This document shows, one piece after another, positions 4,022-4,511 of a stretch of DNA of 4,748 bases. Source of the DNA: a virus (taxonomy: Duplodnaviria > Heunggongvirae > Uroviricota > Caudoviricetes); the IMG/VR virus record IMGVR_UViG_2675903396_000016, one strand, 5' to 3'. Under the pieces are notes generated by a model. It saw only the letters and a list, made by a program, of their open reading frames with translations. It did no database searches and was not told the DNA's origin. Position 1 is the stretch's first letter; every line of letters starts with the position of its first letter. The position numbers and the translations under genes are program-made.

Positions 4022-4204
4022 ATGAGATTTGTACAGCTTATTTTATTGTATTTCTGCACGGTGGTGTGCACGTTATATCTGGTAAGTGGCGGGTATAAGG
4101 TTATCCGGAACTATATACGCAAAAAGATTGATGCCGCGGCGGCGGAAAAAATCAGCGCCAGCCAGTCAGCCGGAACAAAACCCGAAGAGCCTCTCATTTC
4201 GTAG
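4022..4204 (+). CDS. Hypothetical small membrane protein (60 aa, one predicted TM helix)
   Basis: GGAGG Shine-Dalgarno (4013-4017) shortly upstream of the ATG at 4022. N-terminal hydrophobic segment FVQLILLYFCTVVCTLYLVS followed by a basic stretch (RNYIRKK). Lies in the late operon between nanS-p and the holin. No family recognised. Confidence 0.45.
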   Translation: MRFVQLILLYFCTVVCTLYLVSGGYKVIRNYIRKKIDAAAAEKISASQSAGTKPEEPLIS

Positions 4205-4241
4205 CAACTTTCTTAACAACACCTTTCAACGAGAAAATCCC

Positions 4242-4511
4242 ATGTCAGAAATAAAATCTCTGGTCACTGCTGAAGCAGTGAAGGACGTCCTGCGCTCTGA
4301 AGAAGTCAGAAGCGCACTGAAACAGCAACTCCGCCAGAATCTTGAGGCGCGTCTTGATGCTGAAGTGGATGCCATTCTGGATGAGCTGCTGGGGGGACCG
4401 GCTGCTCCTGAGCCTGAAGACGGCGCGGGTGACAGTGCTGTTTCAGATGGCGTTGTGTCTCAGCCTGACGGTAGCAGTGAGCCTCAGCCTGGCGGCGAAA
4501 TGATGATGTAA
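4242..4511 (+). CDS. Hypothetical small protein (89 aa): helical N-terminal half, acidic low-complexity tail; possibly a DUF826-like prophage protein
   Basis: ATG at 4242 preceded by GAGAAAA (4231-4237); chosen over the upstream GTG at 4086 of the ORF track because that extension overlaps the 4022-4204 ORF and lacks an RBS. Sequence MSEIKSLVTAEAVKDVLRSEEVRSALKQQLRQNLEARLDAEVDAILDELLGG followed by a Pro/Glu/Asp/Ser/Gly-rich tail. The family assignment is a recollection, not verified. Confidence 0.55.
   Translation: MSEIKSLVTAEAVKDVLRSEEVRSALKQQLRQNLEARLDAEVDAILDELLGGPAAPEPEDGAGDSAVSDGVVSQPDGSSEPQPGGEMMM

Follow-up and report, generated by a model that had tools for sequence, protein, structure and literature searches.

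Two small open reading frames (ORFs) lie side by side between a sialate O-acetylesterase gene and a holin gene in the window analysed here, a 4,748-nucleotide (nt) stretch of the virus record IMGVR_UViG_2675903396_000016 (IMG/VR; Caudoviricetes). We are close to certain that ORF A and ORF B are genuine genes of the DUF1378 and DUF826 families, respectively. Both proteins have already been catalogued, in two uncharacterised families, and are known rather than new. As to what they do, we lean, tentatively, towards a reading in which the pair are late-made, dispensable modulators of lysis at the inner membrane. The two ORFs are located as follows:

4022-4204, + strand: ORF A, DUF1378 (PF07125, PHROG 494), 60 amino acids (aa)
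4242-4511, + strand: ORF B, DUF826 (PF05696, PHROG 311), 89 aa

Family membership, coding evidence and predicted architecture

ORF A matched the Pfam DUF1378 model over its entire length (positions 1-59 of 59) with a score of 135.7 bits against a cut-off of 25 (E = 5.8e-40) and is 100% identical to RefSeq WP_001213059.1; it is a typical DUF1378 member and displays no differences from the family. ORF B reached 118.7 bits against DUF826 (cut-off 25, E = 1.2e-34, model positions 1-73 of 75) and is 100% identical to RefSeq WP_001289717.1. Both proteins are annotated in O157:H7 and O55:H7 prophages, and the clusters in which they were placed, PHROG 494 and PHROG 311, list them as function unknown. 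A preliminary description made from the DNA alone had also called their function unknown, in agreement with the status of both families, which are catalogued without an assigned function. At the nucleotide level, positions 3875-4600 of the window are found with 100% identity in many Escherichia coli O157:H7 chromosomes, where RefSeq names the products 'DUF1378 family protein', 'DUF826 domain-containing protein' and 'class II holin family protein'.

Codon-position variability was analysed in 47 distinct nucleotide versions of DUF1378 and 31 of DUF826. In both genes the third codon positions are about twice as variable as positions 1 and 2. The median ratio of nonsynonymous to synonymous substitution rates (dN/dS) was 0.17 for DUF1378 and 0.30 for the whole of DUF826, with values of 0.11 for its N-terminal domain and 0.53 for its tail, and purifying selection was detected in all genomic contexts examined (dN/dS 0.11-0.24). 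Neither protein appears in the paper on Sakai ribosome profiling or in its 15 supplements.

A longer frame of 141 aa can be read from GTG 4086 to 4511. We rejected it as an over-extension of the DUF826 frame, because the codon-position variability indicates that the constrained frame in the overlap is that of DUF1378. All distant DUF826 members begin at the M-[SPA]-E-I-K methionine. Over-long DUF826 annotations of 139-148 aa have been deposited as L0106 of phage 933W, orf43 of VT2-Sakai and vb_24B_24 of phi24B, all overlapping DUF1378 out of frame; they represent the same DNA as ORF B, DUF826 frame included, and differ from it by their upstream start. In the VT2-Sakai and 933W records DUF1378 is not annotated. 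The over-long copies are located as follows:

4086-4511 of the window, + strand: over-long DUF826 ORF
2827-3273 of L006: over-long DUF826 ORF in a GenBank record
4931-5350 of L002: over-long DUF826 ORF in a GenBank record
1547-1993 of L119: over-long DUF826 ORF in a GenBank record

Two fusion proteins, P0204 and P0140, were noted. A truncated DUF826 next to an esterase fragment occurs at four further loci (L013, L016, L024 and L035), which were rejected as functional fusions, being out of frame and rearranged. In these rearranged copies (e.g., L016 2970-4700) the esterase is split into fragments, and DUF826 breaks off directly behind ELLGG, where its tail begins, and runs out of frame into a piece of a second esterase C-terminal domain.

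DUF1378 is probably a bitopic inner-membrane protein. Its best 19-residue hydrophobic window begins at residue 3 (mean Kyte-Doolittle value 2.28) and places a transmembrane (TM) helix at approximately residues 3-24, followed by a basic juxtamembrane stretch (residues 26-45, net charge +4) and a variable tail. AlphaFold2 predicted a single continuous helix spanning residues 2-49. The positive-inside rule suggests that the C-terminus is cytoplasmic and that only two residues are periplasmic, so that in the predicted topology the basic helix would reside in the cytoplasm. The alignments revealed an unusual degree of conservation within the TM segment itself, with the pattern L9-Y10-x-[C/S]12-x3-[C/S]16-x-L18-Y19-L20-x2-G23-G24-Y25.

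DUF826 consists of a conserved helical N-terminal domain (residues 1-51), an acidic proline/glutamate-rich tail (residues 52-86) and a C-terminal MMM tip. For ORF B, AlphaFold2 predicted helices at residues 10-17 and 20-50, with a block-mean predicted local distance difference test (pLDDT) score of 92-98 over residues 21-50, and disorder for residues 51-89, with pLDDT < 50 over residues 60-85. The protein carries a net charge of -12 (pI ~4.1), and its tail (residues 52-89) contains 8 acidic residues, 0 basic residues and 6 prolines. Short DUF826 members (55-63 aa, e.g., the Fels-1-like ones) are devoid of the acidic tail; by its sequence, ORF B falls into a long-tailed sub-group, in which 34 of 37 distinct sequences terminate in MMM, TMM, MML, TML or AMM. 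DUF826 thus looks like a cytoplasmic acidic protein with a long amphipathic helix and a clade-specific disordered acidic tail that ends in a methionine-rich tip.

The hydrophobicity and AlphaFold2 results bear out the preliminary description, which had proposed a 60-aa single-TM protein and, next to it, a protein of 89 aa that is helical in its N-terminal half and acidic in its tail. It had also credited both ORFs with usable ribosome-binding sites, and here ORF A and ORF B diverge, the site being strong for the former and only weak for the latter. The start codon of ORF A (ATG 4022) is preceded by a strong Shine-Dalgarno sequence, GGGAGGG at 4012-4018 (+ strand), and at the same place other variants carry GGAGATG, ACGGAAAG or ACGGTAAG. 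ORF B starts at ATG 4242 behind a weak ribosome-binding region (GAGAAA at 4231-4236, + strand) with the Shine-Dalgarno sequence GAGA at 4231-4234. This weak GAGA is retained in every variant, distant Salmonella-type copies included, and the ribosome-binding region of Fels-1-like DUF826 genes contains the same AGAGAAATG.

Searches for relatives of known function returned the two families themselves. The DUF826 profile gave 53 matches among 1.8 billion representative proteins, all of them family members, while the DUF1378 profile gave 331 matches from Escherichia/Shigella, Citrobacter, Cedecea and Erwinia, all DUF1378 where annotated. Sequence searches of the PDB with both proteins yielded nothing below E = 0.1, and a Foldseek search of the PDB with the DUF826 model yielded no match. 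The PADLOC defence and exclusion profiles produced only chance-level scores (E = 0.01-0.04), neither ORF matched a Pfam or PHROG holin family, and NCBIfam holds no model for these families. In the published literature that we found, one paper names both DUFs, solely as being of unknown function, a second has DUF1378 alone, and searches by locus tag, accession and PHROG number returned nothing useful.

Genomic contexts of DUF1378 and DUF826

In the phage collection DUF1378 was present in 309 records, DUF826 in 307, the esterase in 351 and the P21-type holin in 436, and the ~308 records with the pair belong almost entirely to Shiga-toxin phages and related lambdoid ones. Among 5426 complete E. 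coli genomes, at least 919 carry the pair, often more than once; in O157 genomes the median is 2 copies, with up to 7 places per genome. The genome-collection scan detected a single locus, in Cedecea. In IMG/VR, all 80 loci retrieved with DUF1378 showed the order esterase, DUF1378, DUF826 and P21-type holin, with the lysozyme gene next where the flank reaches. The location between the esterase (end 3874) and the holin (start 4587) is thus as first described, and the conservation and synteny survey found both ORFs conserved and syntenic in related prophages, the opposite of the non-conservation that the preliminary description had named as evidence against them. Across the same 80 loci DUF1378 and DUF826 reassort independently of each other.

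The Stx1 phage YYZ-2008 lacks the pair. Its esterase gene is followed by 447 nt of non-coding DNA with hairpins, then by an almost identical holin, YdfR and an equally long lysozyme, leaving the holin-YdfR-lysozyme-Rz order unchanged. In O157:H7 strain PV15-279 (L001 10328-12174), an identical pair is followed by a lysozyme gene that IS1203 interrupts, which means that the copy of the lysis cassette at this locus is inactivated.

Each family also occurs alone at the end of a lysis cassette. In 24 enterobacterial-type phage loci, 'Stenotrophomonas phage BUCT709' among them, a pinholin, a lysozyme of the signal-anchor-release (SAR) type and Rz/Rz1 are followed by a 50-aa DUF1378 whose ATG overlaps the Rz stop (ATGA) and whose AGGAG lies inside Rz; a hairpin comes after it, and no DUF826 is present. 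A further 48 loci, Fels-1-like, are arranged as holin, SAR-type lysozyme, Rz/Rz1, a tailless DUF826 of ~60 aa and terS. Here DUF826 begins 187-447 nt past Rz/Rz1 in 46 of the 48 loci, with either lysozyme type, and no DUF1378 was found in any of them, a hidden Markov model search included. The divergent members in these contexts exceed the Pfam cut-offs, with 62 and 72.5 bits for DUF1378 and 56-96 bits for the short Fels-1-like and Mu-like DUF826 proteins. The lysozymes that we read in these layouts have basic N-terminal residues followed by a weakly hydrophobic stretch, and are therefore SAR-like.

Two side observations concern these layouts. The records named 'Stenotrophomonas phage BUCT708/709' (OM816834 and OM816835, the latter being L004) carry enterobacterial-type lysis genes and have a GC content of ~0.49; the L004-type lysozyme is 74% identical to an E. 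coli prophage lysozyme. The Stenotrophomonas host label looks doubtful given the GC content, the enterobacterial-type lysis genes and 24 near-identical IMG/VR loci of the same make-up. Between the lysozyme and Rz genes of the Fels-1-like locus L140 (4172-4309, + strand) lies a conserved 45-aa ORF of PHROG 6632 with a hydrophobic C-terminal half, which is also present in 15 other loci of L132-L179, where DUF826 occurs without DUF1378.

A third type of context is found in Mu- or P2-tail-type prophages, in which a short DUF826 and then DUF1378 (the window has them in the opposite order), or DUF1378 alone, come behind the tail-fibre assembly gene and ahead of a Dam methylase gene. In the reversed-order Mu-like prophages a 9-pair GC-rich hairpin lies between DUF826 and DUF1378 (L112 3948-3971, + strand). 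Another Mu-like backbone (L005 and 22 loci, L180-L201) carries the esterase, DUF1378 and a long-tailed DUF826 at its right end with no holin nearby, and in one Mu-like case 23 kb lie between the pair and a complete Mu-type lysis cassette, in which a releasin homologue is present. The form of DUF826 follows its neighbours: long-tailed copies adjoin the esterase and DUF1378 in 84 of 84 cases (two frameshifted esterases counted), and all 45 DUF826 copies without an esterase are of the short form.

Surroundings of the pair in the window

The other features of the window are listed below.

107-928: Q antiterminator; the window as a whole is a lambdoid late region
1630-1796, + strand: strong match to the STnc100 small RNA (sRNA) of Rfam, 101.6 bits, E = 4e-22, gathering score 47
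1937-3874, + strand: NanS-p-type sialate O-acetylesterase of 645 aa (DUF1737 + SASA + DUF6645), the upstream neighbour of the pair
4520-4560, + strand: terminator-like hairpin (4520-4548) with a U/C-rich tract, from predicted folds and covariation
4563-4579, + strand: invariant hairpin CUUCCG-GAUUG-CGGGAG, which covers the holin Shine-Dalgarno sequence and belongs to S
4587-4748, + strand: 5' part of the P21-type class II holin gene S (PF04971, E = 1.2e-20), cut by the window end

The entire window is 99.8-99.9% identical to O55:H7 and O157:H7 prophages. Against L003 (O55:H7 CB9615) it aligned in two pieces, with 4817 bases for 4747 query bases, which points to an insertion or deletion of ~70 bases somewhere upstream of the esterase. 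The stretch between the Q gene and the esterase is untranslated or degenerate and holds the STnc100 match; in O55:H7 the interval matching 1630-1796 is annotated as a TerB-family pseudogene and a DUF3927 gene. Esterases of the NanS-p type are named in PMC10462455 and PMC8065619. The holin S has a dual start, MYQM, with Met1 at 4587 and Met4 at 4596, and carries its own dual-start antiholin. The hairpin at 4563-4579 together with this dual start (4563-4596) resembles the start-site control structure of lambda S.

Scans for promoter-like (sigma-70-like) sites found none in positions 3800-4748 of the window or in L073 1500-4800. As no such promoter was detected between the esterase and S, we expect the pair to be expressed from the late transcript. 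The terminator-like hairpin at 4520-4548 lies 8 bases past the ORF B stop and comprises 12 pairs, 3 of which are changed on both sides in 9 variants. The tract that follows it reads CCUGUUGUUGUG in the window and is a canonical T-run in other variants; the terminator scan called the hairpin in L073 and not in the window itself. Within 4022-4586 no Rfam family was matched. For the sRNA 24B_1, a binding site upstream of vb_24B_23 and S has been predicted, in silico only.

By the criterion of an own promoter and terminator that defines a moron, the pair shows no promoter-like site in our scans and a terminator-like hairpin after ORF B. Taking the hairpin upstream of S as a sign that the pair is a moron is weakened by YYZ-2008, which is without the pair and still carries a hairpin and T-run immediately ahead of S.

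Possible roles of the pair

We favour a role in the tuning of lysis because lysis genes adjoin these families in three independent layouts, one of them coupled to Rz. The modulation of lysis timing, which the preliminary description had listed among several options, gains circumstantial support from the solo copies, since these end endolysin/spanin cassettes. The two proteins would be dispensable accessories of lysis systems with membrane-tethered (SAR-type) endolysins, working in the present prophage beside the pinholin S. At the cytoplasmic face of the inner membrane, DUF1378 and DUF826 could tune the release of the membrane segments of the holin or endolysin and thereby the timing of lysis. 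Their charges are complementary (+4 for residues 26-45 of DUF1378 and -12 for DUF826), and where both proteins are present the basic helix of DUF1378 may dock the acidic helix of DUF826. The wider proposal, that DUF1378 (a conserved TM tether) and DUF826 (an acidic cytoplasmic helix) form a class of accessory lysis regulators not recognised before in SAR-endolysin phages, and act singly or jointly where the release segments of the holin or endolysin end in the cytoplasm, is more speculative, and we consider it unlikely on present evidence.

Several observations weigh against a role of the pair in lysis. Neither protein showed homology to any protein of known function. The pair is dispensable, as YYZ-2008 keeps its holin and lysis order without it, and P21-type holins occur in 436 phage records against ~308 with the pair. 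Between the pair and the holin gene S stands the terminator-like hairpin. Mu-like prophages carry the genes behind tail-fibre genes, once at a distance of 23 kb from a lysis cassette that has its own releasin. The lambdoid pair always follows the esterase, and its junctions are general hot spots for accessory genes. In addition, the two families are often found apart, so that a DUF1378-DUF826 complex is not obligatory.

A more specific version of the lysis-tuning reading takes the pair as a two-piece analogue of the Mu releasin gp25, a DUF2730 protein which has an N-out/C-in tether and an anionic cytoplasmic domain, is encoded after the spanins and promotes SAR-endolysin release (PMC9239132). 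Here DUF1378 would act as the tether and DUF826 as the anionic domain that frees the basic N-terminus of the SAR endolysin. The architecture does parallel that of gp25 (99 aa, 4 periplasmic residues, a basic membrane junction, an anionic cytoplasmic domain, a post-spanin gene): the pair are likewise small late proteins, presumably at the cytoplasmic face, with a predicted N-out/C-in tether, a basic junction and an anionic helical part, their genes lie beside SAR-endolysin and spanin genes, and the solo copies occupy the same post-spanin position. The differences are considerable, however. Tether and anionic part reside on two polypeptides, the cytoplasmic part of DUF1378 is basic in the predicted topology, and the pair of the window lies upstream of the holin, the post-spanin position being taken only by solo copies of other phages. 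Sequence similarity to gp25 was absent (hhalign probability 0.2% for the DUF1378 and 0.1% for the DUF826 profile, both < 1%), and no ORF of the window matched Pfam DUF2730. Moreover, each half often occurs without the other, and the phages studied here already release their endolysin by a pinholin. The suggestion that the pair replaces the releasin in Mu-like phages was rejected, as one Mu-like phage carries the pair together with its own gp25 homologue. Given the lack of homology, this co-existence and the frequent separation of the halves, the gp25 analogy serves only as a lead, and a true two-piece releasin seems improbable to us. In phage T4, the antiholins RI and RIII combine a membrane-tethered small protein with a small cytoplasmic helical protein that modulate holin timing, and RI uses a periplasmic domain; the likeness of the pair to RI/RIII is by analogy only.

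Outside lysis, the pair may instead serve the NanS-p esterase as part of one cargo module, in which the small proteins would keep hold of the signal-less esterase, chaperone it or localise it until the cell lyses; one possibility is that the methionine-rich tail tip binds the esterase and DUF1378 anchors the resulting complex in the membrane. The esterase precedes the pair in all lambdoid loci, the three genes remain together in the Mu-like backbone without a nearby holin, where purifying selection persists, and the hairpin closes the block ahead of S. The long tail of DUF826 is confined to copies beside the esterase and DUF1378 (84/84), with esterase-less copies short (45/45), but this link may go back to one ancestral block and thus count as only one or two independent events. 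Esterases without the pair also exist (351 records versus ~308, YYZ-2008 included), DUF1378 or DUF826 occurs without any esterase in 24 + 48 + ~10 loci, and no promoter of the block's own was found. We regard an esterase-related function as rather unlikely. Much the same standing, that of a reading with limited odds, is given to generic late cargo directed at an inner-membrane protein of the host, with DUF826 as a cytoplasmic cofactor; possible effects would be superinfection exclusion, which the preliminary description had also proposed and for which the evidence points neither way, or a blocked transporter, division machinery or envelope-stress sensor. Many small single-pass proteins act as regulators of membrane targets, and the conserved TM segment of DUF1378, with its small-x3-small face and GGY, suggests a specific helix-helix partner. 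The pair is dispensable, and the genes sit at junctions of the accessory type: in Mu-like prophages behind the tail-fibre assembly gene, with an acetyltransferase and the Dam methylase as neighbours, and elsewhere between Rz and terS. On the other hand, no promoter-like site for expression in lysogens was found, known defence proteins gave no match, the multiple copies in O157 genomes (median 2, up to 7) argue against strong mutual exclusion among these phages, and the start/stop overlap that couples DUF1378 to Rz suggests expression together with the lysis genes. A DNA-mimic or anti-restriction function of DUF826, which the preliminary description had raised, would fit a small and very acidic protein (net -12, pI ~4.1), but DNA mimics present a folded acidic surface and are usually early genes. 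The acidic tail of DUF826 is predicted to be disordered, is proline-rich and fast-evolving (dN/dS 0.53) and is absent from short members, the gene occupies late positions without a promoter-like site and is not among the early genes, and neither solved structures nor defence profiles gave a match, all of which makes such a function very improbable.

At present the window thus holds two ordinary catalogued proteins, and what is new here are their genomic contexts and a set of concrete, testable hypotheses. On one side of the pair lies the toxin/esterase region, on the other the genes for bursting the cell. If the two proteins serve the esterase, they would bear on the exploitation of mucin sugars by these strains. 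If instead they tune lysis, they would affect the amount and timing of toxin and phage release per cell, and as accessory lysis regulators they would partly set the time at which Shiga-toxin phages lyse their host and release toxin and esterase.
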